From assembly GCA_022508825.1 (NCBI GenBank), contig JAFLUI010000002.1:14140-78139 (forward strand): a stretch of DNA of 64,000 nucleotides. The letters are read 5' to 3'. Below, piece by piece: positions 19,910 to 40,734 of the stretch; position 1 is the stretch's first letter, and each line of letters begins with the position of its first letter. The translations under genes were made by a program, and so were the position numbers. The stretch comes from Oscillospiraceae bacterium. GTDB taxonomy: Bacteria; Bacillota; Clostridia; Oscillospirales; Ruminococcaceae. The notes below the pieces were generated by a model that did no database searches, was not told where the DNA came from, and saw only the letters and a list, made by a program, of their open reading frames with translations.

Positions 19910-20846
19910 TTTCGGCAGATTTTATATTTTTCTAAAAATCTGCGATATTCCGCCTGATGCGAGGGGTACAGGAATCCCTTGCCGGACGTGTGGCGCTCCT
20001 GCATATGTCCCCCTTATCACAGCGAGAAATTACAGGAGCAAAGTGTATACCATTCACCACAGACTTTGACAAGCTCCTTGAAGAAAGCAAAAGCTTCACC
20101 GGAATTACTGTCCCCGAACTGTTTAGCCGTATCTGGACAGGCTCCATGCCGGGAATTGTCAGCGGTCAGTATCCTGACAGAAATATTTACTACTCATCCT
20201 ACCTATCCACTTATGCAGAACGTGATGTGCGGGATATTTCCGCCGCTGTGGATGCGCTGAAATTCAACAGATTTATCACAGCCGTTGCTGCAAGAACGTC
20301 ACAGCTTCTGAATTACAAAGCCCTTGCAGATGATGCAGACATTGATCTGCCGACTGTAAAGGTTTGGTTAAATATTCTTGAAACACTGGGAATAGTTTTT
20401 CTGCTGCACCCGTATTCAAATAATGTATTGAAGCGGACTATAAAGACTCCTAAGCTGTATTTTTATGACACAGGACTGGTCTGCTATCTGACAAAATGGT
20501 CATCCCCTGAGATTGCCGAAAGCGGTGCCATGAACGGAGCGCTTCTTGAAAATTTCGCAGTATCGGAGATCATGAAGAGCTATCAGAATTCCGGACTTGA
20601 ACCGTATCTGTACTTCTACCGTGACCGGGACTCCAAAGAGATCGACGTTATCATAGAAGGAGACGGTATGCTTTGTCCAATTGAGATCAAAAAGACTGCC
20701 ACTCCTGACAAACGTCTTGCCAAAACATTCGATGTCATCAACAGATTACCTCTTAAGCTGGGAACGGGAGCCATTCTCTGCATGGCAGAGAAGTTCAGTG
20801 CGTTTGACAAGGATACTTTGATAGTGCCAATTGGGATGATATGATC
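19910..20846 (+). pseudogene. 5'-truncated copy of the DUF4143-type AAA ATPase gene found at 21494..22723
   Basis: 19955-20846 aligns with 21834-22725, with 15 aa differences over 295 codons in the ORF track. 19910-19943 aligns with 21378-21410. About 423 bp carrying the promoter, start codon and P-loop (21411-21833) is replaced by 11 nt. Confidence 0.85.
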
Positions 20847-21449: not shown

Positions 21450-21493
21450 AATATAAAATGAAACATTGGACTTCAGCTATTCGGGGGTGTATT

Positions 21494-22915: not shown

Positions 22916-25900
22916 CTAAAATATACGATGAATAATTTCCAAACTTAGGCAATCTAACTTTGCAAGAATATTTTCTAAATTATCATCTTCTTGTCCGGGT
23001 CTGCATCCATTAGGCCAGTCACCTTCTAACTTAGTCTTGTTTTGTAGCAACTTCTCCACATATAAGTATTTCCATTTTGCAAAATGTAATGCGCTCAAAT
23101 TTTTTGCTAGATCCTCTCTTTTTATTAATTGAATACTGGGTCTATGTTTTACCCAATATCCATCTTGACAGTAATGAACAAAATAGCAAACTAAATGAAT
23201 AGGTGTTACAGCAGCTGCCACAATGCAAATTAGAGCAAAAATTATTCCGAATAAGTCTTTATAATTTTTAAAAATCACCCAAAAAGCAATCGTAATTGCT
23301 ATTGAACAAATCAGTTTGATGAAATTAATTAAAAATACCCTTTGTTTTAGCAATTTAATATAAAGAATAAATTGGTTAAGTAATTTAGTAAAAGATGTAC
23401 ATCCTTTTGATAAATTAATAACTATTTTCTTAAATAAATAATAAAAATCATGCACAAATATTATCAATTGCGCTGCATTAAAGGAAATTACACATAAAAT
23501 AATAGCTAAATATATTACTACAGACCATTCTGGTGCATTCAGCAGTATCCCAAACATAACTATTCCCGGGAAAAAAATACTAGAAATTATAAAAAATATG
23601 TTATCTACATATTTACCTTGCCTATATATATGATGGTGTGTAATAATATAAATAATAAAAATTATTTTTGTCGCATAATTTAAAATATCATCGTAAAAGT
23701 TTACAATATGCAATGGTGTCACAGTTTTTTGAATACTCCAACTTGAATCTATTAACTTGGTCAATAATATAATGGCGCTAACGCCTACTGTAACCATCAT
23801 GGATATATATTTCATAAAAATACACAAATGGACAATTTTTACATACCTAAAACTCTTGGAAATAGATAATGAAAAATGTGTATTTTTGTACCGTTTTAAA
23901 AAAGTGGTCATTTTCATAGTAAAAAAATATGTGGAAAATCTTGTTTCAACACGATTTTCCAATTTATGAATCAACCGACAATTTTGTAATATCAAATCAT
24001 TTAACCAACGGTTTTTTAAACTAAAAATCTTAAGAATTGCATCATGCATATTTTGTTGATCAAATAGAACCATGCTATTAGTAAAAGCAATTAGTATAAC
24101 AAAATCCGTATCATCATTTATACTCTCAATTATCAATTGTTCAAATTCTTTGATAAAATCCGACAAAATATTTTGGCGATTACGAAAGGCTTCTGACATA
24201 AAGTTTAATGTATTCACAAGTTCTATACTGCCTTTATTTAGAATGCTATTCCTATAAGAAATATTATTTTTAATCACATCCCAACAGTATCTAGCAATCT
24301 CATAAGCTTTTGCATCGTTAGTTACCTCACAGTATAAAACAAGTGCATCTCTCATTCCGGAACCATTAATAATGCCATTGTACTCGTCATCTCCAATATC
24401 TTGATGCTGCTCCATAATGCTTTCCACCAAGAAAAATTCTTGAAATCTGCGATGAACAAATGAAACACTTCCATTAATTCCTCCAAACCTACATATTTTT
24501 GCATATTCTAAAATCTTGATGGCTTTCTGCCAGTATTCTTTAAATAATCCATTAGACTGCTGATATAATTCATAAATTGGACATTCCAAACCATACTTGG
24601 GTGATTCCTGAAAAAAGGCAGCAAGTCTTTTGGCTGCTTTATGTACATCTTCTTTTGAGAAGTCTTCACTTTCTATCTTTCCTGCACACTTATTTAAACG
24701 GCCATCAACAAAATTACTATATAAATCCATTTGATTTTTAGGGAAAACTATACCTTTTTCTTTTATAAAATTGATTAATAATGTCAAGTAAAAGGGATTC
24801 CGACATAGTACTACAAGATCTTCTCTTTTTCCAAATAATTCTTTAACAATTTCATCTGCATTGTTCAAATATTTTTCCAGCATTGTTTGAATTTTGATAT
24901 CATTAAATTCTTGTATACGAAGAATAATAGTCGGTCTAATTGCCTCAGAGGGAGCTTTATACAATCTAGATGCTACGACACCACCACTTTGATTATTACC
25001 TGTCATAAACTGAAATAATATCTCAGAAATATGATCAATTAGTTCCTGACAATGCTGTTTACCCATTAAACATGGCATCTCATCAAAAGAATCAAAAATG
25101 AAATACCACCGTCCATCTTCTAGCATACTATCAAAATAACCATTCAAAAATCCATCTGTAAAAAAGTCACCATTTTCATAAAGTTCTTCTTTCACAAATT
25201 CTATCAAATCATTTTTATTCGGTAATTTATTTATGTTCCAATTTTTATTCCATTTTTTTAGGTTTATATAGACAGGAATTTTTTTTGTCTTTTTAGACTC
25301 ATCCAAAAGTTCAAGACATAGTTTTCTCAAAGAGACACTCTTACCTGCGCCTGGATCTCCTAGTACTAAAAAAACATCTGCTCCATGCTTAGTTTTTTTC
25401 AGACATTTTAATAAATCTGAATACTTCTTTTTACGTCTTCCTTTAACATTTACTTCCACCTCTGCTTCAATGGGAGTAAACAAATTTTCGTTCCAATCTG
25501 TTTCTCTATTTAATGTTTCTAACCGTTGCCGAAGTGCATTACAAAATGCCATACTTTTTTCAGAAAAATTTTTTTCACGAAAGATCGGATTTTCATTTCC
25601 TTTATGAATTCCAATAGCTGTTCTATCCTGTCCATAAAATACTAATATGATAATAAAAAATATCCAAAACAGAACAATAAGTGCCGTTTCGTTTCCAATA
25701 TTATTAGGGCTATCAATTCCTATCTTATTACACAAAGAATCAATAATATTATTGTATAACTGACTGACAAATGAAGCAAATTCAGTTTTTGAAAACGCTT
25801 TACATATTCCTGTAAGACAAGGCTCTGCCATAAATAAAATCGTACGCATTCCTTCATTCTCTAAATTTCTCACTAAGAGAAAAGCAGATACAAACAATAT

Positions 25901-26011
25901 GAAACACAAGCTAATAATTTGTGCTTCACTTTCACTAAATACACCAAACGATAACGCTATAGCAATGATCATCGCTATTAGTGCCGCTAACCATATGATA
26001 TTTTTTTTCAT
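22916..26011 (-). CDS. Membrane-embedded NACHT/STAND NTPase (N-terminal TM helices, NACHT, helical region, C-terminal multi-TM domain)
   Basis: Walker A VLGDPGAGKSVS, Walker B WYFIFDSFDEM, and the NACHT-type motif LCRNPFYLTLL. About 3 hydrophobic helices precede the NTPase and at least 6 lie in the last ~330 aa. Very AT-rich. An alternative start lies at 26020. Confidence 0.7.
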   Translation of the reverse strand: MKKNIIWLAALIAMIIAIALSFGVFSESEAQIISLCFILFVSAFLLVRNLENEGMRTILFMAEPCLTGICKAFSKTEFASFVSQLYNNIIDSLCNKIGIDSPNNIGNETALIVLFWIFFIIILVFYGQDRTAIGIHKGNENPIFREKNFSEKSMAFCNALRQRLETLNRETDWNENLFTPIEAEVEVNVKGRRKKKYSDLLKCLKKTKHGADVFLVLGDPGAGKSVSLRKLCLELLDESKKTKKIPVYINLKKWNKNWNINKLPNKNDLIEFVKEELYENGDFFTDGFLNGYFDSMLEDGRWYFIFDSFDEMPCLMGKQHCQELIDHISEILFQFMTGNNQSGGVVASRLYKAPSEAIRPTIILRIQEFNDIKIQTMLEKYLNNADEIVKELFGKREDLVVLCRNPFYLTLLINFIKEKGIVFPKNQMDLYSNFVDGRLNKCAGKIESEDFSKEDVHKAAKRLAAFFQESPKYGLECPIYELYQQSNGLFKEYWQKAIKILEYAKICRFGGINGSVSFVHRRFQEFFLVESIMEQHQDIGDDEYNGIINGSGMRDALVLYCEVTNDAKAYEIARYCWDVIKNNISYRNSILNKGSIELVNTLNFMSEAFRNRQNILSDFIKEFEQLIIESINDDTDFVILIAFTNSMVLFDQQNMHDAILKIFSLKNRWLNDLILQNCRLIHKLENRVETRFSTYFFTMKMTTFLKRYKNTHFSLSISKSFRYVKIVHLCIFMKYISMMVTVGVSAIILLTKLIDSSWSIQKTVTPLHIVNFYDDILNYATKIIFIIYIITHHHIYRQGKYVDNIFFIISSIFFPGIVMFGILLNAPEWSVVIYLAIILCVISFNAAQLIIFVHDFYYLFKKIVINLSKGCTSFTKLLNQFILYIKLLKQRVFLINFIKLICSIAITIAFWVIFKNYKDLFGIIFALICIVAAAVTPIHLVCYFVHYCQDGYWVKHRPSIQLIKREDLAKNLSALHFAKWKYLYVEKLLQNKTKLEGDWPNGCRPGQEDDNLENILAKLDCLSLEIIHRIF

Positions 26012-26068
26012 ATAAACCATCCTATACTTTTAATACATACCTTATTACTCATACGATATGCTACGCTA

Positions 26069-27148
26069 TTATTCCTTTTTTGACTGATTTCTCTCAATAA
26101 CATCCTTTAATTCACTAAGGGTCATTATGTAGTTTTTCTTGTGATGTATCATGCGGTGACAGTTTGAACATAAGCAGATCATATCATTCACCGGATCAAC
26201 ATTTGTTTCTCCATCAAGAGTATGAAGCGGTTTTATATGATGAACTTCTATAAAGTTTTCACCAAGTTCATACATACTCTTAAAGTCGAAACCGCAAGCC
26301 ATACAAGTATACCCATGTGCTTCTATAGCAGCTTTTCTGTTTTGCGGATTTCGTTCATATCTTCTTCCATAATGTTCTATTTTTCGTCCTTCGGTACCGA
26401 TCCTGATTACAGTAGTTTCCAAATCGTCTGAATTCAACAATTCTTTTATTTCAATTTCAGGCTCGGTATCGTCAATATCACCCATCATCCATACAAAAGA
26501 GTGAGCATCTATCAATTCAGCAGAGCGGTCAATGTCAGCCGCCAGCTTTTCCTGCACCCACTTCATAATTTCCAGAAATGTCTGATAGTTTTCCCATGTA
26601 CATTCGGAAAGGCAGTCTGTTTCAAAACCAAGTCTTTTAAATCTTTCCCTGAATTTATCCGGTCTTGCCGGGACGTATTTTGTACAGTCCTTTATAAAGA
26701 ACAAAAAAGAAAGCAATGGAAATTTTTTGCCCCACAGTTCTATAGCTTCACCAAATAAGGCTTCATCTTTACCATCGGAAGTAAAAAGCCTGTACAAAAT
26801 ATCTTCAGATTTATACAGATGATTTGAAAACTTCTTTTCAATATCATATGTAACATCTCGCCAGTTCAAAAGGTTCTGTTGTATACTGTCAACACGCATT
26901 TTCATAACAGAAAGTACTTTCTTAGTTATCTCTCCTGTTCCGACCATATCAGCAGACCATGAGGGAATACCAAGAATACGCTGTGCCTTATCATAAATAT
27001 CACGCTTGTACCATTCCTGATATCTGATATATCCGGAGGAAAATGAAATTTCCATAGTCGGACAATTCCTTTCCGCCTGTTTCTTTAAAACTGCATCATA
27101 AAACTGTAAAAGACATCGTTGAAATCTCTCTTCGTTTGGAATAAACAT
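26069..27148 (-). CDS. HNH endonuclease with unknown ~270-aa N-terminal domain
   Basis: C-terminal GYTCMACGFDF...FIEVHHIKPL...NDMICLCSNCHRMIHH (HNH with CxxC pairs). The gene ends 48 nt upstream of the NACHT gene on the same strand. Confidence 0.75.
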   Translation of the reverse strand: MFIPNEERFQRCLLQFYDAVLKKQAERNCPTMEISFSSGYIRYQEWYKRDIYDKAQRILGIPSWSADMVGTGEITKKVLSVMKMRVDSIQQNLLNWRDVTYDIEKKFSNHLYKSEDILYRLFTSDGKDEALFGEAIELWGKKFPLLSFLFFIKDCTKYVPARPDKFRERFKRLGFETDCLSECTWENYQTFLEIMKWVQEKLAADIDRSAELIDAHSFVWMMGDIDDTEPEIEIKELLNSDDLETTVIRIGTEGRKIEHYGRRYERNPQNRKAAIEAHGYTCMACGFDFKSMYELGENFIEVHHIKPLHTLDGETNVDPVNDMICLCSNCHRMIHHKKNYIMTLSELKDVIERNQSKKE

Positions 27149-28772: not shown

Positions 28773-28904
28773 AGGTATAAAGTTCTATAAAATTATTATC
28801 ATATAATCGCAGCTATATAGCCTATTTTCTTAAGAAAAAACTGATTTTTTTGTAGACATACGCGTTTTTTAGACATACAAAAATTGTCAGATAGGAGCAC
28901 GCCT

Positions 28905-31208
28905 GTGGAATATTATGAAATTTTAAGATGCATACCTGAACCAAGTAAAAAAGATTCTGTACTTGAGCCTCCCAAGATGCCAAATTACTCCAATAAAGAT
29001 TTAGATAAATTTATTGAAAATCCAGCGGCTTTGCGGGGAAAATATGTAAACTTGCGGCAGAAGCTTGTCGACATATATGAGCATTGTTTTCAATATAATG
29101 AGATCATTCTTAACAATCCCAGCGTAAGTATACTAATGCAATTAATACGCATTAAGCTAATTTCTCCACTTTTTCAACTAGATTATAAAGAATTTGGAGA
29201 AATATTAAACGAAAAATTATATGTATCTTTAGAAACCAAAATTGTAAATACCAAATTATGTTACATTTCGTCATACAATAACAATGTTTATTACTTCATA
29301 AATAACAATATATTGACTTCACGTTCTTTAAGTAAGAATGAAGTTTTAAAAAACATTTCCAAAACTGAACACATACTGGCTTTTGAAAAAGCCTATAACA
29401 TCTTTTGTAAATTTTTGGAAGCGTTTACTAGAGATGATGAGAGTAAGACAATGAAATATTTTATGTATTTTATTGCAAATTATAAAGTTGACAAAAAACA
29501 ACCAACTCCAGATTCTATTTGGGGTTATTTACCAGACCCGTATTTTGCCTTTGGAATCAGTGAAAAAATTACATTTATCCCCAGCACAAATCATCAAGCC
29601 AACTACATTTTAATTGATAAAGAGTCGAAAATATTATTTAATCATGATATGTATTCAGTTGGCAGCTGCTTTTTTAACAATTTTTTGCAATTAAAAATTA
29701 AGGAGAAAGATAAAAAAGCTTTCAACAATATGCTGATTTTGATTTCCAAAATAGTGGGGAAACGATGCAAAAACTTTTCAAAACCATCTTATACAATACA
29801 TTATGATATCTATGATTTAAACAACTATACATACAAATTACAATTTGAAAATTCAACAGTTGATATAACAATAAATGATAGGACATTTGTACCAGATAAT
29901 CTTACTGAACACCAACACTGGAACCCATTTCGTCCAATTGGAATTCTAAATAGCAAAATATTGCAGACAGTAACTGATAATTATAACCCCGAGACGTTAT
30001 ACCAATATTTACATTCTATGGCTTTTGATGCTTTAGATCCCCATCAAATCGATAATATTTCTAAAATGCTGACTATGACATTAATGACATCACATGACGA
30101 GCACAAGGTGGTTATAGTAACTTGTAATTCTAATAATATCTCAGACATTAAAAAATTTTTCACAGGCATAATATGCTCCGAAGAGGCACATAATCTGTCT
30201 GTAATTGATATGAATATTGATATCAAGGAAATAACTCATAAAGACTTTAAAAATAATCTTTGTCAACTTAGCTGCACCAATACAAGAGCTATATTTTTTG
30301 ATCATTTTGATGATAAATTAACAAAGGGTACACTAACTAATTTAATACAGGCACAAAAAGATACACATATGCAGATTATGGTCTTTCAAACCTCAAGAGA
30401 TGTCAGCTATATATCAAATGACAATTTTATACATATAAATTTATCTGACTGGAAAAAGAGGGAAGATATACATGAACTTGATAATTACAACGCACTATGG
30501 GGAAGGCTTTACCTTTCCTTGTATGGACTTCATTTGATTTTCAAAGAAAAAAAGGATAAGTATCGATTCCCACTTGCAGGTGAAAATCTTATAATTGAAG
30601 ATAGTGTCTCAATCATAGTAAGAGACGAAATAGTTGCAAATATAGCTAATGAGTTTATTGAAAAATGTTTTATAGACATTGATGAAGCCAAAAAGCGAAA
30701 AAAAGAACGGCGCAAAGAAATTGCCAAAATAAAAAAAGAAAATCCAGGTGCATCAAATGATACTATTGAGCGCTTAATTAACAAAACACCTTTATTTTCA
30801 ACATATGATGAAGATTTTAAAGTGTATGCAGATACATATTTAGACACACAATGTCCCAAAAGCGTTGTTTCAGCACATACAATTACAAATAAAGACATAA
30901 AAAAATATATAATGAAAAATTATAAAAAAACTTTCAAGCATACACAGATAAACGCAATGTACACTGGTCACGATAACAAAGCTATGGGCTTCCAATATCT
31001 AAGTTTAAAAGAACCGTGGGAAATCACGGAGAAGCAGCTGATGGAAACTAATATAAACAAGACTCCAGATATTGATGAACAAATACAGACAAAACTAAAA
31101 AATTTGATTGAGGTATTGCCTAAAACCATTGATTTCAGTAAGTTGATAGCTACTCCACCTCCAAGTATTCGTATAAAAAGAACACCTGCATCCTCTGATG
31201 AAAATTAA
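28905..31208 (+). CDS. Large hypothetical protein, no recognisable motif (orphan)
   Basis: Long uninterrupted, very AT-rich ORF. The tracked start is TTG at 28884. The in-frame GTG at 28905 has AGGAG 7 nt upstream and is preferred. No P-loop or catalytic motif seen. Confidence 0.6.
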   Translation: MEYYEILRCIPEPSKKDSVLEPPKMPNYSNKDLDKFIENPAALRGKYVNLRQKLVDIYEHCFQYNEIILNNPSVSILMQLIRIKLISPLFQLDYKEFGEILNEKLYVSLETKIVNTKLCYISSYNNNVYYFINNNILTSRSLSKNEVLKNISKTEHILAFEKAYNIFCKFLEAFTRDDESKTMKYFMYFIANYKVDKKQPTPDSIWGYLPDPYFAFGISEKITFIPSTNHQANYILIDKESKILFNHDMYSVGSCFFNNFLQLKIKEKDKKAFNNMLILISKIVGKRCKNFSKPSYTIHYDIYDLNNYTYKLQFENSTVDITINDRTFVPDNLTEHQHWNPFRPIGILNSKILQTVTDNYNPETLYQYLHSMAFDALDPHQIDNISKMLTMTLMTSHDEHKVVIVTCNSNNISDIKKFFTGIICSEEAHNLSVIDMNIDIKEITHKDFKNNLCQLSCTNTRAIFFDHFDDKLTKGTLTNLIQAQKDTHMQIMVFQTSRDVSYISNDNFIHINLSDWKKREDIHELDNYNALWGRLYLSLYGLHLIFKEKKDKYRFPLAGENLIIEDSVSIIVRDEIVANIANEFIEKCFIDIDEAKKRKKERRKEIAKIKKENPGASNDTIERLINKTPLFSTYDEDFKVYADTYLDTQCPKSVVSAHTITNKDIKKYIMKNYKKTFKHTQINAMYTGHDNKAMGFQYLSLKEPWEITEKQLMETNINKTPDIDEQIQTKLKNLIEVLPKTIDFSKLIATPPPSIRIKRTPASSDEN

Positions 31209-31975: not shown

Positions 31976-32902
31976 TCAGTACATTTCCATCATTTTAAGC
32001 TCTGCAATGCTGTCCCTCATTAAACCCGGCTTGTAGAACATTTCTTCGATCTCCAACTCGTCATAGCCGTAATCCACCAGCATAATTACATCTTCTTCCG
32101 GTATACCAAAATATCCGGCATACTCTATCAACGTATCCATAGTACCGTCATAGTAAGGACTTCTATGGAAAAAGCCGTATCCTCCATACCAATCAGGGAA
32201 ATCAAACTGCTGCACTTCTATCACTCCGCTTGGGTCGATCCTCAGGATGTCACCGCAGGACACGTTCACCTTGCTATAATTTGTCAATCCCAGCTTCTTT
32301 ACAACTCTGCTAAGAATTTCGTCAGTGCTTGCATACATATAAAAGCCATTGAACTTGTAAAGTGCCATAGGATTGTCGCCTTTCACTATGTACAGATTGT
32401 TATGACCGTCAAGTATGGTATAACAGAAAGAACCCTCGGTTTTCTCTGCCATCTTTCTGATGGAATCAAAACCGAGGGTATTTTCTTTCTCTATAAGCTG
32501 TACGGCAACGTAGCTGTCCGTCTGGATATGTGTATGCGGTAGCTTTTCCTCATTGCGCAGCATGATGTCATTATGCAGGACACCATTATGCGCAAGGGCA
32601 AATTTCAGCTTGTCGACCTGTCCCGGAAATGGATGATTGTTGTAGTTGAACTTCTCGCTGCCCTGAGTAGTCATTCGGGTATGTCCCATTATTACCCTTG
32701 CATCATCAGGTATCTTATACCACATTTTATGAGCTGCAACGGGTCTTTTATAGATATGCATACCTGAGCAGGTATTGAAAGCTATCCCTGTTGCATCAAT
32801 GCCACGGGCTTCACATTCCTTTGAGAGTACACCGATAATTCTGTTTTTGCTCCGGGTCGAAAAGATATTGCCGTAGTCGATCAATCCAAATAAACAGCAC
32901 AT
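31976..32902 (-). CDS. Class II (Ntn-type) glutamine amidotransferase domain protein
   Basis: Starts MCCLFGL, giving Cys directly after Met as in Ntn amidotransferases. The ATG lies 1 nt after the amidoligase stop, and GAGGAGG sits within the upstream gene's end. Confidence 0.65.
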   Translation of the reverse strand: MCCLFGLIDYGNIFSTRSKNRIIGVLSKECEARGIDATGIAFNTCSGMHIYKRPVAAHKMWYKIPDDARVIMGHTRMTTQGSEKFNYNNHPFPGQVDKLKFALAHNGVLHNDIMLRNEEKLPHTHIQTDSYVAVQLIEKENTLGFDSIRKMAEKTEGSFCYTILDGHNNLYIVKGDNPMALYKFNGFYMYASTDEILSRVVKKLGLTNYSKVNVSCGDILRIDPSGVIEVQQFDFPDWYGGYGFFHRSPYYDGTMDTLIEYAGYFGIPEEDVIMLVDYGYDELEIEEMFYKPGLMRDSIAELKMMEMY

Positions 32903-32903
32903 A

Positions 32904-34010
32904 TTAATATTCCTCCTCACACTCTACCGGTTCGTTTACGTAAAGTCTGCGTTCTTTCAGATAGGTAATAAGCTCCGGTTCCTCAACGCCTGAAACAAAG
33001 TCGCACCAATTCATCAGGGTCATTTCTTCATCCGTCATCCGTGCGGATATATCACATATCCGGTTTACAAGCTGCAGGGCTGCAACAAAGGTATTGTATT
33101 TGAGAGTACCACGGAAAATACGGAACTCTATAGTTTGACTGTTTGTAAGATTAACGCAGGTATAACGTCCGGAATAGTTTTTCTTTGCATTATCAAAGGT
33201 AGCTTTGGGATTTTCCTTGATACCGTATCTTGCCGCCCATCGTGAAAGCTGACTTTCGGTGCGTCTTGAAAATTTAAGAAGCTCCTGCCAGAAACGTTCC
33301 ACAAAGAACAGCACCCTTGAAATGCACGCTTCCTGTTCCTCATGGGTATCGCCAAAGGATGAACGGTTAACATGGATATGCAGTCCGCAGGTTTTTGTTT
33401 TGTGGGAACGATAGCCAAGAGAGGCTGCCTTTCTCATAACATCAGCCCACGGCATTTTGTTAAGATGGTAATCAAGGGACATTGGATGGGTAACGATCTC
33501 CATTCCATCGTTAAGGCTGCTGTCACGCTTTATGTATATACGTCTTGTACTGTCGGCATTAGCAATGTCGATAATCTTTTCCGCATTTGAAGCATACTGG
33601 CCACCTCCGTCAATTTCAAGCTCCACACCAAAATACCGGCTGCTGCTGCCATAAAAGATCGGATCCGGTTTAAAGCTGTAGTCGTGGATATATTCGCCTG
33701 AATCGTGCCTACAATAACAGTTATGGCAATATGGATTATCAGGCTCATCATCCAGATAATAAGCGTCTTCAGCATGAATTGTTCTTCCGCAGTCCTCGCA
33801 GTCTGTATAGTATCGGGTATAGCATCTGTCACAAAGAATGTGATTGCTGTCTCCGGCAACATCGTCAGCCCATATCCTGTCGCCGCAATGACTGCAAATT
33901 ACAGTCTCATCGTCATAACATTCCTGACAGATCTCCTCTCCGTCAAAAGTTTCCATGTCATCAAGGCTGCAGGTGTATCCGCAATGGCTGCATATAAAAG
34001 TATCACTCAT
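32904..34010 (-). CDS. Amidoligase-family (glutamine-synthetase-like) enzyme with N-terminal multi-CxxC zinc-ribbon region
   Basis: At least five CxxC pairs in the first ~110 aa. Then YFGVELEIDGGG, DSSLNDGMEIVTHP and TCGLHIHVN, as in the Amidoligase_2 family. ATG at 34010 with AGGAGG upstream. Confidence 0.65.
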   Translation of the reverse strand: MSDTFICSHCGYTCSLDDMETFDGEEICQECYDDETVICSHCGDRIWADDVAGDSNHILCDRCYTRYYTDCEDCGRTIHAEDAYYLDDEPDNPYCHNCYCRHDSGEYIHDYSFKPDPIFYGSSSRYFGVELEIDGGGQYASNAEKIIDIANADSTRRIYIKRDSSLNDGMEIVTHPMSLDYHLNKMPWADVMRKAASLGYRSHKTKTCGLHIHVNRSSFGDTHEEQEACISRVLFFVERFWQELLKFSRRTESQLSRWAARYGIKENPKATFDNAKKNYSGRYTCVNLTNSQTIEFRIFRGTLKYNTFVAALQLVNRICDISARMTDEEMTLMNWCDFVSGVEEPELITYLKERRLYVNEPVECEEEY

Positions 34011-34462
34011 TTTTGATCTCCTCCTAAAATAAAGAATGGGCAAGTCCCAAAAGACTTGCCCGAAGCATTTGATATTTGTTTTCTGACTACATTACCTCCT
34101 ATAAAAAATAAGCCGCAGCATAAGCTACGACTTATTTTCGCTTCCGAGAATGACGTCAATTACTGCACACAGAATTGTGGCAATAGTAATGACCGCCATA
34201 TCTACGATTTTTGTTGCCATTTTCTCGGATATTGTGTTACCCGAAAACACGTCTGTAAAAAGATTTTATGAATGTCTCCAGTATGCTCTTGATCGTCCTC
34301 AACAGATTTTTCATCATATAGATATCCTCCTTTAATTTGATGAAGCTATGCTTCTCATGGATATAATATATGATTGAAAAATGAGGGTTTACATGGTATA
34401 GAAACAATATGATATATCACAGTTTACAATCATATATGTATAAATAGAAAAATGTAATTTGT

Positions 34463-34996
34463 TTATTTATTCTTCTTAAATTGCTTTTTAAACTCTGATT
34501 TTAGCATATTTACTCCCTTAGAAGAAGTTAGCTCTGAATCGTTTAACTTACCCATTTTTATTTGTTTACAAACTTCTATGAAAGCCTTACCCATAGCTAG
34601 AGTAATCACGCCCGCAGTTCCCCCTGAAATCATACCACCGACAACTGAACCAATTCCTGGAACAAATTTAAAAACATTCGACACAATAGTTTTTCCTATT
34701 ACTGTTGTCCCGCCAACTCCCAAAGCTGCTATAGCAAGAGTTTTAAGTCCATCTTTTTTTACATCAATTTTGAATATTCCTGCTATCGTAGCCATAAGTG
34801 CAACTTGTTCACCAATAAGTAACGGGGCATCTGCAAATGGGATCGGAACAGCGCCTGTGGCAGCCGTTGCTGCAACTGCCGCTGCGACAGCATTATCTGC
34901 TTTTTCAAGCATTTTCTTGATTTCCAGATATTTAAGTTCATCAATAAAGTCATCATCGACTCCCTCATTTTTTAAATTCTCATACTCGTTTGACAT
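34463..34996 (-). CDS. DUF697-like glycine-zipper membrane protein (gene D of the 4-gene operon)
   Basis: 177 aa. Hydrophobic Gly/Ala-rich helices (GAVPIPFADAPLLIGEQVALMATIAGIF and VPGIGSVVGGMISGGTAGVITLAMG). AGGAGG ribosome-binding site. Starts 18 nt after gene C. Confidence 0.6.
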   Translation of the reverse strand: MSNEYENLKNEGVDDDFIDELKYLEIKKMLEKADNAVAAAVAATAATGAVPIPFADAPLLIGEQVALMATIAGIFKIDVKKDGLKTLAIAALGVGGTTVIGKTIVSNVFKFVPGIGSVVGGMISGGTAGVITLAMGKAFIEVCKQIKMGKLNDSELTSSKGVNMLKSEFKKQFKKNK

Positions 34997-35014
34997 AGTT
35001 AATTCCTCCTAAAT

Positions 35015-36457
35015 TTACATTGTAAAATAATTATAAATATCTTCTTGACTTCTTAAAATCCTGCTGCTGTCTACTCCTACCAATTCAGCAAGCTTAATTG
35101 AACCATCAAAAGCAATATTGATGTCAATATCGAAAGCTAAATCTACAGCTGATTTGAATTCCTTGAATTTTTCCATAAGAAATTCGACCAGTTTTCTATA
35201 TTCATCATCAAGCTGTGCATTTAGCTTATCAATAGCAATATTATGCTCCTGAATGCATTGTTGTTCTTTCTCTAAACAGCATTCTTTTGCAATGCCATAC
35301 ATAAACATACCGGCAGCATTACCGATCATTGCACCAAGAACAGGAATAGGTATAGCTACCTGACCTAAAACAGAAGCTATTGCACTTATTGACACATCAA
35401 GGCAAACTGTTTCGGAATTAATAATAAATTCCTCATTATCAATATTTCCCTTTCTTAATTCATTTGCCTGAGAGACAACACCAAAGGCAGCCGTAACAAG
35501 TGCGGAAGCAACATTAGCGGGTGTGGCAGTAAAATTAGTAAGCGCATATACACTTGCTCCTCTTATACCACCTTTTGCTGTATCTATTCCAGTAGTTAAA
35601 CCAATCTCCTTCCAATCCTCAGCAGTAAATTCATTAAGTTTTTTTCCGGATTTTAATTTTTCCCTAACTGCCAGACAGAACGATACACTTCCCTCTAAAG
35701 CTGCACTTATAACAGTAGCTTTAGCTCCTTCTTTTAGTGTCGGTTTAGATGCTTCATATGCTTTATCACGCTGATTTTGATCCTCTTTCTTTATATTTGA
35801 TTCTTCTTTGGAAATTGTTTCTGATACTTTTCCTTTCTGCACCTCATCATATTTTGCAATGGATGAATTAAGATTTTTAGATATACTAAGTCCGGTATCA
35901 TTTTCAAATTGTTTTACTTTGTTTAATAAACTCCAATCCTCTTTACTTAATAATGATGGACTTTCATTAGCAAGTTTTATGACTCTGCTAATCTCTTCAT
36001 ATTGATCTTTCGGAATATCATAAGCACCGCCATCATTTATAAAATCCGGATATTTGAGTAAATGCTTTTTTATATGATTTAATGTATTTTCAGCGCCATT
36101 AATGAATTTCGATTGAATTGGCTGACCGTTTTTCAAATAATCTTCAGGTGCTGTTCTGCCAACCCCATCAAAAGTATATTCACTGGCTAATCCTTTAATT
36201 AAATTTCTTGCATTTGAAATATTTACCTGAATATGCTCTGCAATTTCTCCATGCTTTGTATCTGGATTTCCGAGAATATGACTTGGGTCACCTACAAACC
36301 GCTTTAGTTCGTCAAGTTCTTCAAGAGCTTCTAACAGATTTATATCCTGCTGTGTTAGCTTTTCTATCAATCTATCAAGCCTTAATTGATTCAAATGGTC
36401 TATCCAAGCTGCAGATGCTTGTTCTTGGGTACTTTTAAGTATTTTCTTACTATCCAT
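35015..36457 (-). CDS. Hypothetical protein: soluble N-terminal ~230 aa plus C-terminal hydrophobic helices (gene C)
   Basis: 480 aa. The C-terminal half carries helices such as VSISAIASVLGQVAIPIPVLGAMIGNAAGMFMYGIA, which share the (A/V)PIP motif with gene D. Starts 14 nt after gene B. Confidence 0.6.
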   Translation of the reverse strand: MDSKKILKSTQEQASAAWIDHLNQLRLDRLIEKLTQQDINLLEALEELDELKRFVGDPSHILGNPDTKHGEIAEHIQVNISNARNLIKGLASEYTFDGVGRTAPEDYLKNGQPIQSKFINGAENTLNHIKKHLLKYPDFINDGGAYDIPKDQYEEISRVIKLANESPSLLSKEDWSLLNKVKQFENDTGLSISKNLNSSIAKYDEVQKGKVSETISKEESNIKKEDQNQRDKAYEASKPTLKEGAKATVISAALEGSVSFCLAVREKLKSGKKLNEFTAEDWKEIGLTTGIDTAKGGIRGASVYALTNFTATPANVASALVTAAFGVVSQANELRKGNIDNEEFIINSETVCLDVSISAIASVLGQVAIPIPVLGAMIGNAAGMFMYGIAKECCLEKEQQCIQEHNIAIDKLNAQLDDEYRKLVEFLMEKFKEFKSAVDLAFDIDINIAFDGSIKLAELVGVDSSRILRSQEDIYNYFTM

Positions 36458-36471
36458 TACATCTCACACCC

Positions 36472-37314
36472 TTATTCAACTGTTTTGTTGATTAGTTCAG
36501 CCAATGATAGTGTATTATTTACTAACGTACCAAGCTGTATCTGAACATCTCCGCTCAATTTGATGAAATCTGAATTTTTATACTCAGAAAGATCGTTATG
36601 TTGTACGCTCAGTTTGTCATGAAGTACTTCTGTTTCATCGATCAAATTATGTACTTTCTCATTGCAATTAACAACAGAGGCTCTATACTTTGCAATTTTT
36701 TTCGCTTCCTCTACCGCCTCGTCAGCAATTTTGCTGTTCTTAGCTGAAAGTGAAATCAAAGATACACCAGTCCCTGCGGCAGCAATACCCCATCCAATTG
36801 GTCCTGCTAACGCAAGTAATGCCTGTCCTGCTGCTATACCACCTCCACCTGCTGTTAAAGCGCCTCCACCAAGCCATGCTAACGCCGCCTTAGTAGCTGC
36901 TGCTCCAGACAGGGTACTTATTGCTGTTCCAGTCGAGGCTGTTCCAAAGGTAGTAGCAATGCTCATGGCAACAGTAGGAGCCATCCCTGCAAAAGCACCA
37001 CCTGCACCTATTGCAGACATAACACCTACACCAGATTTTACATTACTTTCCATAGCTTCTTTAGCATATGATTCTGTTTCCTTAAACTTATCTCTCTCCA
37101 TGTAAATACGCTGGATTTTCTGTTCAAAATCTTTCGGCGTATTGGCAATACTATTAATTAATTCACCAACTTTTTCAATACAAATAACAGCTGATACCCG
37201 TTCACGATATAAAGTATCACAGCTTGTCATCATTGTTTGATATGCACTGTCATATTTATCCACCTCTTTTTTATGAATAGCGAGTGCATCCTTTTTTAAA
37301 GACGAGTTAAACAT
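36472..37314 (-). CDS. Coiled-coil protein with central Gly/Ala-rich glycine-zipper membrane region (gene B; paralog of gene A)
   Basis: The central ~95 aa read GVGVMSAIGAGGAFAGM...LAWLGGGALTAGGGGIAAGQALLALAGPIGWGIAAAGTGV. The helical N- and C-terminal arms are homologous to 37401..38288. ATG at 37314 has GGAGGA upstream; the tracked start is 37329. Confidence 0.6.
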   Translation of the reverse strand: MFNSSLKKDALAIHKKEVDKYDSAYQTMMTSCDTLYRERVSAVICIEKVGELINSIANTPKDFEQKIQRIYMERDKFKETESYAKEAMESNVKSGVGVMSAIGAGGAFAGMAPTVAMSIATTFGTASTGTAISTLSGAAATKAALAWLGGGALTAGGGGIAAGQALLALAGPIGWGIAAAGTGVSLISLSAKNSKIADEAVEEAKKIAKYRASVVNCNEKVHNLIDETEVLHDKLSVQHNDLSEYKNSDFIKLSGDVQIQLGTLVNNTLSLAELINKTVE

Positions 37315-37400
37315 ATCCTTATCCTCCATTTTTTATTTACATCATTAGATGACATTTATAATAAATATCAGCATCAATGCTATTTGTAAATATGAGACAT

Positions 37401-38288
37401 TTATTTAATCTCTTCGTTAATAAGCTTTGCTAATTCCAACGTTTCGTTAGCCAAGCTACAAATAGAATTTTGCTCATATTCATCCAATTCGGAAAAATTA
37501 ACATTTCTGAATTCATATCTCGCATTATAAAAATCTTTAATAAAAGAATAGTACCATATTGTCTTTTTACTTAAATTTCTTATATTGCTGATACATTTTT
37601 CTATAGATGTTTTGTACTTTTCTAAACATTCCGATGCTCTGAATGACATCTTATCATTCCACCATGTAGAATAAAATCTCCCAAAATAAGCACGATTAGA
37701 TACCGATTTTTGTGCTCTGAGTGTAATGGAACCACCCAAAGCAAATAATGCGTAATTTTTTCCTAATTTTAAGTCAATTAAATTATCATTACTATGAAAT
37801 TCTGAATTAATTACGTTGCCGCCAAACCATACTGACATAAATGATGAAAACGGTCTCCGAGGCAGGGCCTTTCGTTTTGCAAGTCGCTCGAGTCGTGATG
37901 GTCTGTCTAAGTTTAATTTGATAAATTTTTCCGCTTTTTCTGTTAAACCTGTTCCAAAAGTGGTTATAAAACATATATAAGTTTCAAAATCAGGCGACCA
38001 GAAAGGTTGATTATAAAACAATAAAAAAAGTTCCTCATCTATTTCACTTTTAGCATATTCTTCCTTTCCACTAAAAAAATCTACTTGCTCAATGATTGAG
38101 TGTACCATATTTTCAAGATCATATGGTTTATTGGTGATGCTGTTGATCAATCCACAAATTTCTTCTATGCATTGTACAGATTTGATCCTGTATAGGTATA
38201 AGGAATCACAATATGCCATCATTGTATCATAAGCTCGATTATAGTTGCTTACACTATTATTGAATTTTTTATAACCAAAGATATTCAC
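37401..38288 (-). CDS. Hypothetical protein, paralog of gene B lacking the glycine-zipper core (gene A)
   Basis: GTG start with AGGAGG 5 nt upstream. The N-terminal arm (YNRAYDTMMAYCDSLY...CIEEICGLINSITNKP) and the C-terminal arm (...LANETLELAKLINEEIK) align with gene B. Confidence 0.6.
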   Translation of the reverse strand: MNIFGYKKFNNSVSNYNRAYDTMMAYCDSLYLYRIKSVQCIEEICGLINSITNKPYDLENMVHSIIEQVDFFSGKEEYAKSEIDEELFLLFYNQPFWSPDFETYICFITTFGTGLTEKAEKFIKLNLDRPSRLERLAKRKALPRRPFSSFMSVWFGGNVINSEFHSNDNLIDLKLGKNYALFALGGSITLRAQKSVSNRAYFGRFYSTWWNDKMSFRASECLEKYKTSIEKCISNIRNLSKKTIWYYSFIKDFYNARYEFRNVNFSELDEYEQNSICSLANETLELAKLINEEIK

Positions 38289-38442
38289 TATTGCCTCCTG
38301 TAATAGTCTTCCATATTCTGTTCAATTATTACAGCATATCGACTGCTTAATTAGGGCTTTATCAAAGTATACCATATTACAATAGACAATATATGTCATT
38401 CTCAAAAAATTCATATATTATAATTCAGAAACTTATGACATA

Positions 38443-38471
38443 ATTATACACTATTAGCGTAAATATGTCAA
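38443..38471 (-). promoter_or_regulatory. SigA-type promoter of the 4-gene operon
   Basis: On the minus strand: TTGACA (38471-66), a 17-nt spacer, then TATAAT (38448-43). An 8-bp inverted repeat TATGTCAT/ATGACATA (38391-98 and 38434-41) lies just downstream. Confidence 0.5.
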
Positions 38472-38556
38472 GAACTAAATGCCGTTAGCTACAAATTTAT
38501 ATGAAAAGCAAGAGTATTCTTTATTCTATCAGCGTATGATAAAATTACACTAAGAG

Positions 38557-38910
38557 GTGATAGTTTTGAAAAACAGCTTAAATGTAGAGATAGGAAGCAG
38601 GGTACGCCAACAGCGTAAGCTTATAGGATACACCAGAGAACAATTTGCAGAAGCCCTTGATATATCAGAACGTTTCGCAGCTGATATTGAGCTTGGAAAC
38701 AGAGGTATGTCATTTTCAACACTGATACGGCTTTGCAATCTGCTTTCAGTATCATCCGACTATATTCTTATGGGAAAAGAACCAGAAGCCGAGCGTGACC
38801 ATTCTGCAATAGATAAACTTCTTTCCTCCATCGATGACAAATACATCCCTTACACCGAGGACTTGCTGAAAATACTGGTTAAGATCATCAACACCTCCGA
38901 AAAGAAGTAA
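38557..38910 (+). CDS. XRE-family helix-turn-helix transcriptional regulator
   Basis: IGSRVRQQRKLIGYTREQFAEALDISERFAADIELGNRGMSFSTLIRLCNLL is a classic Cro/C1 HTH. The start may be TTG at 38566. Confidence 0.85.
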   Translation: MIVLKNSLNVEIGSRVRQQRKLIGYTREQFAEALDISERFAADIELGNRGMSFSTLIRLCNLLSVSSDYILMGKEPEAERDHSAIDKLLSSIDDKYIPYTEDLLKILVKIINTSEKK

Positions 38911-39025
38911 TGCGCCCTACTAAAAAAGGCAAAGCGATTCCAAGTAAAAGCCGCCCGAAACAGTGTTTCGGGCATTTTTCCTTGTAATACGCTTTGCCTT
39001 TGCTAAAATTATTCTAAAATATCTC

Positions 39026-39054
39026 TTGACAATCTCTAAATTCTATGTAATAAT
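39026..39054 (+). promoter_or_regulatory. Putative SigA-like promoter of the large serine recombinase gene
   Basis: TTGACA (39026-31), then an A/T-rich -10-like TAATAAT 16-18 nt downstream. A nested hairpin terminator at 38925-39003 precedes it. Confidence 0.35.
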
Positions 39055-39084
39055 AAGCAGTAACAGAAATAACGGAGGTAATAT

Positions 39085-40734
39085 ATGAATATTGCAGCAT
39101 ACTGTCGTGTTTCCACCGACAAAGAAGACCAGCTCAACAGTCTTGAAGCTCAGAAGAACTTTTTTACGGAATATACTCAGAACAACGGTCACAACCTTGT
39201 CCGTTTATATGCCGACGAGGGTATCTCCGGAACGAAAATAAAGAACCGCACTGAATTCCTGCGGCTTATGCGGGATGCTAAAAAAGGTCTGTTTGAGATG
39301 GTAGTGGTTAAGGACATCTCCCGTTTTGCCAGAAACACCGTTGACTTCCTCCAGAGTATCCGCCAACTGAAAGCCCTGAATATTGAGACGGTTTTCCTTA
39401 CTGCCAATCAGACAGTCCTTGGAAACTCCGAATTTGTCCTTACGATTTTTGGAGCCCTTGCACAAGAGGAGTCCGCAAACACCTCCAAGCGTATAAAGTT
39501 CGGAAAAAAGATCAACGCCGAAAAGGGACGTGTCCCTAACTTTGTTTTCGGATACGATAAGACCATAGGGGACTATTTCAACCTTACCATCAACGATACT
39601 GAGGCTGCTATTATCCGGGAGATCTTCGATATGTACATCAATGAAGAAATGGGAGCGTCCCGAATTGCCACCACTTTGAATAACCGCGGCATAAAAACAA
39701 AGCGTGGCTACAACTGGACCCAGAATGCCATTGCCCGAATACTTACCAACAGACTTTACATAGGTCAGATTATCAACGGCAAGGAGGAGGTTCAGGACTT
39801 TCTTACAAGCAAGCGTCAGAAGCGGGATGAATCTGACTGGCTAATTATGGAGCGTCCGGAGCTTCAAATAGTTGATACAGATGTTTTTGAGCGTGCTCAG
39901 ACTATTATGGAGAAGCGCAAAAACTCTTTTATCAACAATCATGAACGAAACAGCAGCAGACATCTTTTCAGCACCCTTATCAAGTGCAAAGAGTGCGGAT
40001 ACTCTTTCCGTAGGACAAGCTATAAGGGCAGAAGCCGTTGGGTATGCAGCGTCCGGAACACTCGCGGAACAGACTCCTGTCCCAATGCTGTTGTTATTGA
40101 GGAGGATGTTCTGATAAGTGAGATACAGACCTATTTCGCTGAAATAATAAAGAATAAGAACACCATGATAAAGAATATTAAAGCAGAGTTTGAGCGGGTC
40201 TACAAAAACAGGGACGACAACGAAAGCTATAATGCCGAGCTTACCGAGCGCAGGGACACCCTTGAAAAGAAGCGTCAGAGGTACATGGATATGTACGTTG
40301 ACGAGCTTATAAGCCGTGAAGAGCTTAACGAGAATGTAAAAGGCATTGCCTCTGAGCTTGAAAAGATAAAAAACGAGCTCACCATTACCGAATACAATCT
40401 CAGCCGGGGTGATGTTCTTGAAAAAGTCCTTGCTCAGACCTTCTCCGGAATAGAAAATACCGCTGATGTCTCCTCCATGATTAATGCTCAGCTTAAGCAG
40501 ATCATTAATCGTATAGAGGTAGACAAGGACGGTCACATCGATATTTTCCTTAATCTTTTCGGCGAGATCGGTATTGATGAGTCGTTTCTAATTTGCGACA
40601 ACCATACACAAAGATATAACCGAGAAGCTCCCCGTAGTATGTCCGCAGATGTATCCGGCAGTAAAAGAGGTGCTGGAGATCAACAAGCAGGAGCGGCACA
40701 TACGGGGCGGAATGGCTACAAAACACAAGTATGA
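39085..40734 (+). CDS. Large serine recombinase (resolvase catalytic domain, recombinase domain, zinc ribbon, coiled coil)
   Basis: MNIAAYCRVSTDKEDQLNSLEAQ contains the catalytic Ser. Zn-ribbon cysteines CKECGYSF...WVCS. 549 aa with a GGAGG ribosome-binding site. The ORF crosses attR, so its last 41 codons are encoded by host spoIIID DNA in another frame. Confidence 0.9.
   Translation: MNIAAYCRVSTDKEDQLNSLEAQKNFFTEYTQNNGHNLVRLYADEGISGTKIKNRTEFLRLMRDAKKGLFEMVVVKDISRFARNTVDFLQSIRQLKALNIETVFLTANQTVLGNSEFVLTIFGALAQEESANTSKRIKFGKKINAEKGRVPNFVFGYDKTIGDYFNLTINDTEAAIIREIFDMYINEEMGASRIATTLNNRGIKTKRGYNWTQNAIARILTNRLYIGQIINGKEEVQDFLTSKRQKRDESDWLIMERPELQIVDTDVFERAQTIMEKRKNSFINNHERNSSRHLFSTLIKCKECGYSFRRTSYKGRSRWVCSVRNTRGTDSCPNAVVIEEDVLISEIQTYFAEIIKNKNTMIKNIKAEFERVYKNRDDNESYNAELTERRDTLEKKRQRYMDMYVDELISREELNENVKGIASELEKIKNELTITEYNLSRGDVLEKVLAQTFSGIENTADVSSMINAQLKQIINRIEVDKDGHIDIFLNLFGEIGIDESFLICDNHTQRYNREAPRSMSADVSGSKRGAGDQQAGAAHTGRNGYKTQV
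40585..40630. other. attR (element right arm TTTCTAATTTGCGACAACCATA + CA core + host half-site)
   Basis: See attL. The CA core is at 40607-40608. Confidence 0.75.

Follow-up and report, generated by a model that had tools for sequence, protein, structure and literature searches.

A PDC-M09 gene pair with a DUF697 partner and a locus-specific duplicate on a mobile element of an Oscillospiraceae bacterium: a candidate membrane-associated defence module

What kind of system is encoded by four tightly packed genes that follow a strong consensus promoter on a mobile element of an Oscillospiraceae bacterium, and do all four belong to it? The genes, here called A to D, lie on the minus strand of a 64,000-nucleotide stretch of contig JAFLUI010000002.1 (metagenome-assembled genome GCA_022508825.1, positions 14,140 to 78,139), referred to throughout as the window. 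The original prediction took them for a novel four-gene set of glycine-zipper and DUF697-like membrane proteins. The analysis leads to a different description: the locus is almost certainly PDC-M09, a catalogued pair of phage-defence candidate (PDC) genes, together with a DUF697 protein. Its favoured function, at a probability of roughly 0.55, is that of a membrane-associated anti-phage or anti-mobile-element module acting in defence or conflict. The features on which the argument rests are the following (lengths in amino acids, aa; pLDDT, predicted local distance difference test; ORF, open reading frame).

34462 to 37338, minus strand: B-C-D cassette as a mobile unit; a DNA homology block (71%) shared with the closest relative, L013, with limits exactly at the B-C-D borders
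34463 to 34996, minus strand: gene D, 177 aa, small DUF697 Gly-zipper membrane protein, accessory third gene of the cassette
35015 to 36457, minus strand: gene C, 480 aa, PDC-M09B member (PADLOC 1.1e-178), a homologue of long YeeR (840 aa) over the C-terminal two-thirds of the latter
35285 to 35725, minus strand: hydrophobic helical region of C, residues 245-391, including the IPIPVLG motif; moderately hydrophobic, low pLDDT
35828 to 36289, minus strand: N-terminal globular domain of C, residues 57-210, equivalent to Pfam PF27347 (YeeR_C), predicted alpha-beta-beta-beta-alpha-beta
36472 to 37314, minus strand: gene B, 280 aa from M6, PDC-M09A member (PADLOC 5.1e-100), helical bundle in the AlphaFold model
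36742 to 37035, minus strand: hydrophobic Gly/Ala-zipper centre of B, 98 aa (residues 99-196 of the 285-aa ORF), with one charged residue, K147
37401 to 38288, minus strand: gene A, 295 aa, locus-specific paralogue of B; GTG start, AGGAGG site, N- and C-terminal bundle helices kept

Identification of the locus comes from the PADLOC models, to which both central genes correspond over nearly their whole lengths: residues 6-284 of B cover positions 1-280 of the 282 in PDC-M09A, and residues 2-478 of C cover positions 3-484 of the 486 in PDC-M09B. The view that the set is not any named system is thus overturned, and the locus is a regular member of a catalogued, uncharacterised candidate family, not a new system. 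Both genes (B, J1F11_00605; C, J1F11_00600) are annotated as hypothetical; no Pfam or NCBIfam family was found for either in the scans, and PHROGs gave only weak tape-measure-like matches that are explained by composition. PDC-M09 is cassette CAS_00055 (FAM_02775>>FAM_02807), with 380 RefSeq instances, one of 145 untested phage-defence candidates, and the pair was chosen for being embedded in bacteriophage exclusion (BREX), defence island system associated with restriction-modification (DISARM) or type I restriction-modification loci (Payne et al. 2024, bioRxiv 10.1101/2024.01.29.577857). No functional data on PDC-M09, DUF697, YeeR or anti-phage glycine zippers were found in the literature, and PDC-M09 is unnamed in the papers searched.

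Which of the four genes form the unit was addressed with 113 loci gathered from genomes, metagenomes, viral contigs, plasmids and E. coli (L numbers), 107 of which were scanned with hidden Markov models (HMMs) for the three genes B, C and D. In all 89 loci that have room for it, B immediately precedes C in the same orientation; D directly follows C in 64 of 85, an unrelated gene being next in the other 21. Gaps in the relatives have a median of ~16-18 nucleotides (nt), and B and C overlap in Klebsiella, E. coli, Rhodococcus and Lactococcus. Three cluster representatives (P0244, P0364 and P0379) are B-C fusion proteins; as read from its sequence, the N-terminus of P0379 resembles a ribbon-helix-helix DNA-binding domain. 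B and C form an obligate pair that is at times one polypeptide. The proteins of L013, the closest relative, are 76% (B), 64% (C) and 90% (D) identical to those of the window. Because of these adjacencies, because A is an orphan and because the DNA block common to the window and L013 ends at the borders of B-C-D, the conserved unit is B-C, usually with D, and not A-B-C-D. The claim of a novel four-gene system accordingly fails: on a survey of co-occurrence B-C, mostly with D, are kept together, but A occurs in no other locus. The cassette is found in Bacillota, Actinomycetota, Pseudomonadota, Cyanobacteria, Spirochaetes and Synergistetes. Of the 61 plasmids that carry C, 46 are from Klebsiella, with clinical isolates as the main source of the Klebsiella plasmids listed, and only three full-length copies are present in the 2.9 million contigs of IMG/VR.

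Gene A is the only unique feature of the window locus relative to the family. A and B are paralogues as proposed, with 35% identity over the N-terminal ~80 aa (BLASTP, E 8e-17) and with the B-family HMM matching A at both ends (residues ~7-85, 2.8e-20; residues ~220-294, 1.4e-12) and leaving its centre unmatched. The proposed polarity, in which the centre of A had been replaced in B, is however reversed: B is canonical and A deviant. The PDC-M09A model likewise matches A at its two ends only (2.2e-19), and most of the residues that are invariant in the bundle helices of B are retained. The ~134-aa centre of A is not hydrophobic and has lost the zipper; it shares a TTFGT remnant with the centre of B, the rest scoring no better than chance (its similarity score is attained by 24 of 500 shuffles). 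Since the end helices are matched and the centre is not above chance, A is a tandem duplicate of B in which the scaffold was kept and the membrane insert lost. No homologue of A besides B was found among 5.8 billion proteins, no second B-like gene stands in tandem upstream of B in ~100 related loci, and A and the promoter lie outside the DNA block common to the window and L013. Rather than a component of the system, A is most likely a modulator or decoy confined to this locus, or a duplicate in decay. A frameshifted B was also considered as the nature of A and rejected; the other reading frames hold no B-like sequence.

The AlphaFold model of C consists of a 55-residue N-terminal helix, a globular domain, and a low-confidence helical half that holds the hydrophobic helices; residues ~30-235 are modelled with pLDDT >90. 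The domain comprises a helix at 69-87, short strands at 94-95 (from the structure string), 107-109 and 112-116, a helix at 122-135, a strand at 145-148 and a helix at 150-165. A profile of it found 372 matches in 1.84 billion cluster representatives (50%-identity clusters), nearly all of them in proteins of ~480 aa that carry the domain at residues ~55-215; B-C fusions and one protein that has another kind of C-terminal module depart from this pattern. In P0374 the YeeR_C domain is fused to a Cys-rich repeat region.

This domain ties C to YeeR, an uncharacterised inner-membrane protein of the E. coli K-12 prophage CP4-44. Residues 390-499 of K-12 YeeR align to residues 49-161 of C with the common motifs HG..AE, NAR, D, QxK and PxDQY, and an HMM of the C N-domain matches K-12 YeeR at 3.6e-8 (database size 1). 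A long form of YeeR, 840 aa, matches K-12 YeeR at 63% identity over 509 aa and carries in addition a 330-aa helical, zipper-bearing extension; hhalign aligns the C-family profile to it with a probability of 95% (E 4e-8, 294 columns, C 66-390 to YeeR 408-725). PF27347 "YeeR_C", which was not contained in the Pfam set scanned here, is a precomputed match, marked "weak", on 8 of 120 listed C homologues. As the alignment begins at YeeR residue ~390-408, C is a YeeR-family protein without the N-terminal polytopic membrane domain of YeeR; that domain is not found in C, which starts with the soluble 55-residue helix. In 6 of 5426 complete E. coli genomes and in an IMG/VR contig (L021) the order is a helix-turn-helix (HTH)-WYL-WCX regulator, B (281 aa), C (481 aa, overlapping B) and long YeeR, so that in E. 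coli a YeeR paralogue occupies the position of D. The E. coli genes are on a CP4-like island with Ag43, DUF932, a YeeP-like GTPase (Dynamin_N match), AlpA and a SIR2 protein.

The TKHGEIAEH, PEDY and IQSKF motifs, from which a nuclease signature had been very tentatively proposed, are present in C and are the most conserved positions of its family. In an alignment of 112 homologues that are 25-52% identical to C, only D106, Q115 and K117 are invariant across the whole protein, and G63, H69, G70, E74, L126, H132, Y136, Y146, P149 and Y203 are conserved in at least 90%. Conservation in C is focused on one small polar site of a folded cytoplasmic domain. In the model E74 lies in helix 1, D106 at the start of strand 2, Q115-x-K117 in strand 3, and H132-xxx-Y136 in the next helix. 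As E, D and QxK are placed as expected for such a site, we infer that the YeeR_C domain may carry a PD-(D/E)xK-like site. The tentative idea thus gains support from the modelled position of three invariant residues on the expected strands, and the accompanying statement that none of the four proteins has a recognisable enzymatic motif conflicts with the conserved E/D/QxK set. A Pfam scan of the 112 homologues matched 185 families, all weakly, and the 25 that recurred most often include no nuclease family; single-sequence searches of the PDB with B and C gave chance-level matches only. The hydrophobic region of C is weakly DUF3482-like (14 of the 112 family members match, best E 2.5e-4).

B is a cytoplasmic helical-bundle protein with a conserved Gly/Ala-zipper insert. 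Its AlphaFold model (49 homologues) is a bundle of helices 2-55, 61-93, 189-245 and 255-274 at pLDDT ~90-96, with a low-confidence centre at residues 94-193. The zipper centre that had been described in B and found absent from A is confirmed. It is here that conservation of the B family peaks, the invariant columns lying mostly in ...TTFGTASTGTAIS.LSGAAA.KAALAWLGGG...LALAGPIGW... The scaffold evidently tolerates exchange of the insert, since the sole B gene has a shortened centre in L071 and L073 and a classical two-transmembrane (2-TM) hairpin with a SLATT-like match in L079. The C-terminal membrane region of the dynamin-like protein LeoBC (~388-543 of the PADLOC model) matches B from the window (1.2e-5), from Klebsiella (3.5e-4) and from Lactococcus (1e-8), in each case over a short, compositionally biased segment; reversed and block-shuffled B controls gave no LeoBC match. 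No significant fold match to B was found in the PDB by Foldseek, the rows for ClyA, SmhB and AhlB having E ~0.5-2, a TM-score of ~0.2 and a probability of at most 0.28. The NCBIfam model of NheB matches B with E 0.003 and 16.7 bits against a cut-off of 500, and HBL and ClyA matches are absent from the Pfam scan. Because the Foldseek rows are insignificant and the NheB match is below its cut-off, likeness to alpha-pore-forming toxins stays an analogy. Two variants stand apart: at 4539-5969 of L004, B has a ~190-aa N-terminal repeat extension and a 110-aa coiled-coil protein is found in the place of D, and at 4481-5851 of L074 a distant second B-like gene, with only the zipper motif in common, follows D.

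D is DUF697-like as predicted (PF05128, 5.9e-11, 42.8 bits against a gathering threshold of 27.7, the one family that Pfam assigned to any of the four proteins), and its orthologues are annotated DUF697 in all loci retrieved by contig search; the link of DUF697 to B-C is newly described here. The helix with an (A/V)PIP motif that C and D had been said to share exists as a short motif, but the profile comparison is insignificant (hhalign probability 1-4%), and hhalign of D with C, of D with B, of B with C and of D with long YeeR is insignificant throughout, so that the common helix is not evidence of homology.

That B, C and D are membrane associated, as the original prediction held, is supported by their Gly/Ala-rich, moderately hydrophobic segments, of which A has none; the peak 19-residue Kyte-Doolittle scores are 0.86 (A), 1.5 (B), 2.0 (C) and 1.7 (D). 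The lack of signal peptides was likewise borne out, no hydrophobic signal-like stretch being present in the N-termini of the four proteins as read directly from their sequences.

The spacing of the genes is as first described, with gaps of 86 nt (A-B), 14 nt (B-C) and 18 nt (C-D). The first figure counts B from M6 at 37314, which has GGAGG 8 nt upstream and agrees with the database gene call of 280 aa; the ORF as listed runs from 36472 to 37329 (285 aa). The GTG start of A at 38288 has AGGAGG upstream, and D is preceded by a strong AGGAGG ribosome-binding site. Transcription of the locus involves these further features.

38443 to 38471, minus strand: promoter TTGACA-17-TATAAT, 12 of 12 consensus positions, back to back with the XRE gene
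38557 to 38910, plus strand (divergent): XRE/HTH_3 regulator, 117 aa (Pfam HTH_3 4.9e-9; PADLOC matches to HTH, control-protein and capH-like models)
34038 to 34061, minus strand: terminator-like hairpin, the first one 3' of D, ~400 nt past its stop codon

The promoter is as strong as had been claimed, and it drives A, and B-C-D by read-through. Five perfect TTGACA-17-TATAAT sites occur in the window against 0.02 expected from shuffles, and therefore are not due to chance; the host organism uses such sites as promoters. Within the leader (38289-38442, 155 nt, promoter to gene A) the inverted words TGTCAT and ATGACA overlap candidate divergent promoters of the XRE gene and are possible operator sites. 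Between D and the hairpin there are two small minus-strand ORFs, 34237-34317 and 34125-34220; the first would encode an amphipathic 26-aa peptide (MMKNLLRTIKSILETFIKSFYRRVFG) behind a strong AAAGGAGG ribosome-binding site, and the second a hydrophobic 31-aa peptide (MATKIVDMAVITIATILCAVIDVILGSENKS). They are conserved in none of the related loci and could be a small toxin-like pair or chance ORFs. A scan of 33900-39100 with Rfam gave no match.

The window thus has an XRE gene and a consensus promoter where many relatives have an HTH-WYL regulator. Orthologues of this regulator immediately precede B, in the same orientation, in 27 of the 75 loci that leave space for one, and remnants are found in five more, including a Klebsiella plasmid; in L013-15 it is one gene further upstream, and the E. 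coli protein also carries a WCX domain. These HTH-WYL(-WCX) regulators are of the BrxR/CapW type, which is common in the control of defence systems. No remnant of a WYL gene was found in the window.

The placing of the operon on a mobile element next to a Cro/C1-type regulator was correct, in view of the XRE/HTH_3 gene, a serine recombinase, a resolvase and a relaxase fragment, and the cassette is cargo of a serine-recombinase-type mobile element. The element lies in a low-GC island of ~21-40.7 kb whose genes include the relaxase fragment, the resolvase, the large serine recombinase, a glutamine amidotransferase-amidoligase pair, two PDC-S01 genes, a NACHT gene and an HNH gene. No direct repeats marking its ends were found (words of at least 11 bases common to 19.5-29 kb and 40.5-41.3 kb). 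The NACHT/STAND NTPase (22916-26020, minus strand, 1034 aa, NCH3 C-terminal domain) adjoins the 359-aa HNH protein (26069-27148, minus strand); the latter matches type IV restriction and ZorE-like models, the former has no PADLOC match, and together they look like another defence pair on the island. The AAA_14/DUF4143 genes of the PADLOC family PDC-S01 are on the plus strand at 19957-20844 (N-terminal ATPase part missing) and 21458-22723; the same family accompanies B-C-D in L017, and in L007, L010 and L012 it is represented at a distance of ~8 kb. Overlapping Amidoligase_2 and class-II glutamine amidotransferase genes (31976-32920 and 32904-34043, minus strand) follow the cassette downstream, and the same pair, with DUF932 and YqaJ, is found downstream of B-C-D in L013 (14232-16243), which suggests that the two mobile elements share a backbone. 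The part of the island that is lowest in GC (~29-30%) holds a plus-strand ORF of 774 aa (28884-31208) with no Pfam or PADLOC match.

Defence genes and mobile elements make up most of the neighbourhood; in the related loci the neighbours include GmrSD with a UvrD helicase, type I-C CRISPR-Cas with a Macro protein, BrnTA, Mrr, DUF4238, SIR2, DUF262/HEC-06 with dynamins, and a similar PDC-S01/resolvase/serine-recombinase element. On the Lactococcus lactis plasmid pSD96_06 (L113, NZ_CP043518.1, 2825-10481) B-C stands between two inverted, 84%-identical dynamin-family genes with N-terminal HTH segments, one of which matches LeoBC (2.2e-12) and has an ...ALGGPVAWVIG... segment; DUF262/HEC-06 adjoins. 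Among the B-C loci collected, no other has a GTPase as partner.

With defence-gene neighbours, and with B and C a PADLOC candidate, the defence, abortive-infection or exclusion class among the functions first suggested fits best. The proposed role in the sporulating mother cell found no footing, no sporulation gene being identified among the neighbouring ORFs scanned. In the favoured reading the YeeR_C domain of C would provide, on the inner side of the membrane, a PD-(D/E)xK-like phosphodiesterase or a site for binding or cutting nucleic acid; C would be held there by its own helices and by B and D, B (with D) supplying membrane insertion. The zipper helices might permeabilise the membrane once C is triggered by infection, which would amount to abortive infection, or tethered C might act locally on entering DNA; either way the module would protect the host, or its mobile element, from invading DNA, phages included. 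The cassette encodes no NTPase. The specific mechanism, a nuclease-like sensor or effector plus a zipper pore, is put forward tentatively and is well short of even odds.

Several points weigh against this reading. PDC systems are explicitly unvalidated, as a later preprint also states. D is missing from a quarter of the loci, and some copies of the cassette are found amid housekeeping genes. On the Klebsiella plasmid examined (IncFIB) B-C adjoins the ter operon and lies ~3 kb downstream of psiA; surroundings of this kind leave room for a function of the Klebsiella plasmid copies in plasmid biology. Hydrophobicity of the segments is only moderate (Kyte-Doolittle 1.35-1.96) and their modelling of low confidence, for which reason membrane insertion is counted as inferred. 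As to the site in C, a Gln (Q115) stands for the usual acidic residue of (D/E)xK; E...D...QxK and NxK variants of the PD-(D/E)xK site are found in HinP1I and MspI. The best Foldseek matches of C (E 0.33 in the PDB, 0.09 in BFVD) and all others are helical proteins. PDB profile searches with the B and C families were unconvincing, the best match (0.0057) being to an unrelated peptidase subunit over the hydrophobic helices of C, and comparison of the N-domain of C by hhalign with YqaJ, Cas4 and Mrr proteins from the gathered loci was not significant, these comparators being single sequences and the result hence uninformative. C is also essentially absent from the phage collection, which is neutral on defence.

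Other functions would account for part of the same evidence. B, C and D might remodel the membrane protectively and without killing the cell at sites of phage injection or lysis, sealing, stabilising or reorganising it so that lysis is delayed or entry blocked, like the membrane part of a dynamin that lacks its GTPase. This is unlikely but the strongest of the competitors, since three B members resemble the C-terminal region of LeoBC with negative controls, B-C is flanked by two dynamin-family genes on pSD96_06, a YeeP-like GTPase with a Dynamin_N match is present on the E. coli island, and the DUF697 and DUF3482 matches are to families often linked to GTPases. However, neither the window nor any of the other ~100 loci (pSD96_06 excepted) encodes a GTPase within or beside the cassette, the LeoBC similarity is confined to a short and compositionally biased segment, and the invariant D/QxK site of C would be left unexplained. 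Slightly less probable again is a selfish or competitive function for the mobile element itself, as an addiction module, entry exclusion, or a plasmid-establishment or anti-defence factor. Carriage on integrative elements and on the 61 plasmids, with the IncFIB copy near psiA, is in keeping with it, as are the varied regulators in front (XRE, WYL) and the apparent ribbon-helix-helix fusion, such variety being common for toxic modules. A conserved small labile antitoxin partner is nevertheless absent; A could be an antitoxin-like dominant-negative partner of B but is unique to the window locus. Moreover many copies lie outside recognisable mobile elements amid housekeeping genes, and the WYL-WCX regulators and the neighbours point to phage defence.

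The two remaining explanations stay closer to the toxin idea and are improbable. An obligate four-component membrane-permeabilising complex, built of A+B and C+D pairs, would explain the tight packing of four genes behind one consensus promoter; A retains the conserved bundle helices of B and could still bind B's partners, and the pairing recalls by analogy the NheA/NheB-type split, in which tripartite toxins pair hydrophobic and non-hydrophobic paralogues. Against it, A has no homologue elsewhere and no tandem A-like gene is present in any of ~100 loci, homology with L013 stops before A, and the relatedness of C and D is insignificant, so that this arrangement deserves very little weight. Least probable of all is that B (and A) are exported ClyA/Nhe/Hbl-type alpha-pore-forming toxins that act on other cells. 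The overall shape, a long helical bundle with a hydrophobic head, would fit, and NheB, ClyA, SmhB and AhlB do come up in the B searches; yet these matches fall far below the NheB cut-off or are insignificant in Foldseek, a signal peptide is absent, no secretion genes are nearby, and B is strictly coupled to the intracellular-looking C.

Beyond the database entry, the favoured defence reading of B-C(-D) is now accompanied by a DUF697 three-gene subtype, an HTH-WYL regulator in many loci, the relationship of C to YeeR, an invariant site of three residues open to mutation, and a modular B insert linked to LeoBC. If the cassette is a defence system, a link to immunity would be made for an orphan gene of a K-12 prophage and for two uncharacterised domains. 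A bolder and rather doubtful possibility is that B-C(-D) represents a new mechanistic class of membrane-integrated immunity, in which YeeR_C, as a hitherto uncharacterised catalytic domain with an E/D/QxK/HxxxY site, would be tethered on the inner side of the membrane and, combined with zipper, dynamin-paddle-like proteins, would destroy DNA at entry or gate a lethal pore. Were this true, it would give a first function to E. coli YeeR and to the DUF697 family, and A would be a natural dominant-negative or decoy of the membrane subunit.

Compared with known systems, the coupling of a cytoplasmic nucleic-acid-type domain to membrane helices recalls lambda RexA/RexB and the SLATT 2-TM effectors of systems like CBASS (cyclic oligonucleotide-based antiphage signalling system), as an analogy only; there is no sequence relationship, and no signalling enzyme is encoded in the cassette. 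The zipper centre of B and its flanking helices weakly resemble the C-terminal region of Eleos LeoBC in three divergent B proteins, but unlike LeoA/LeoBC none of A-D has a GTPase or P-loop match, and the window has no dynamin homologue. A candidate likeness to PD-(D/E)xK enzymes lies in the alpha-beta-beta-beta-alpha-beta order predicted for C and in the placement of E74, D106 and Q115-x-K117, with H132xxxY136 falling where nucleases of the RecB/Cas4 type have their QxxxY motif; no member of the group was matched significantly by sequence, profile or fold. YeeR differs from C in its ~380-aa N-terminal part, a polytopic membrane region and a Cys-rich segment, which is absent from C, and K-12 YeeR in turn is without the C-terminal helical and zipper part of C. 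D belongs above the Pfam threshold to DUF697, an uncharacterised family of small membrane proteins. The closest counterpart of the locus is PDC-M09 itself, which is widespread and without a structural relative found: B and C match both models end to end and are neighbours in the same orientation, as are the Klebsiella, E. coli and Lactococcus copies, but where the model consists of two genes the window locus adds the DUF697 gene D, the orphan A, and an XRE instead of a WYL regulator.

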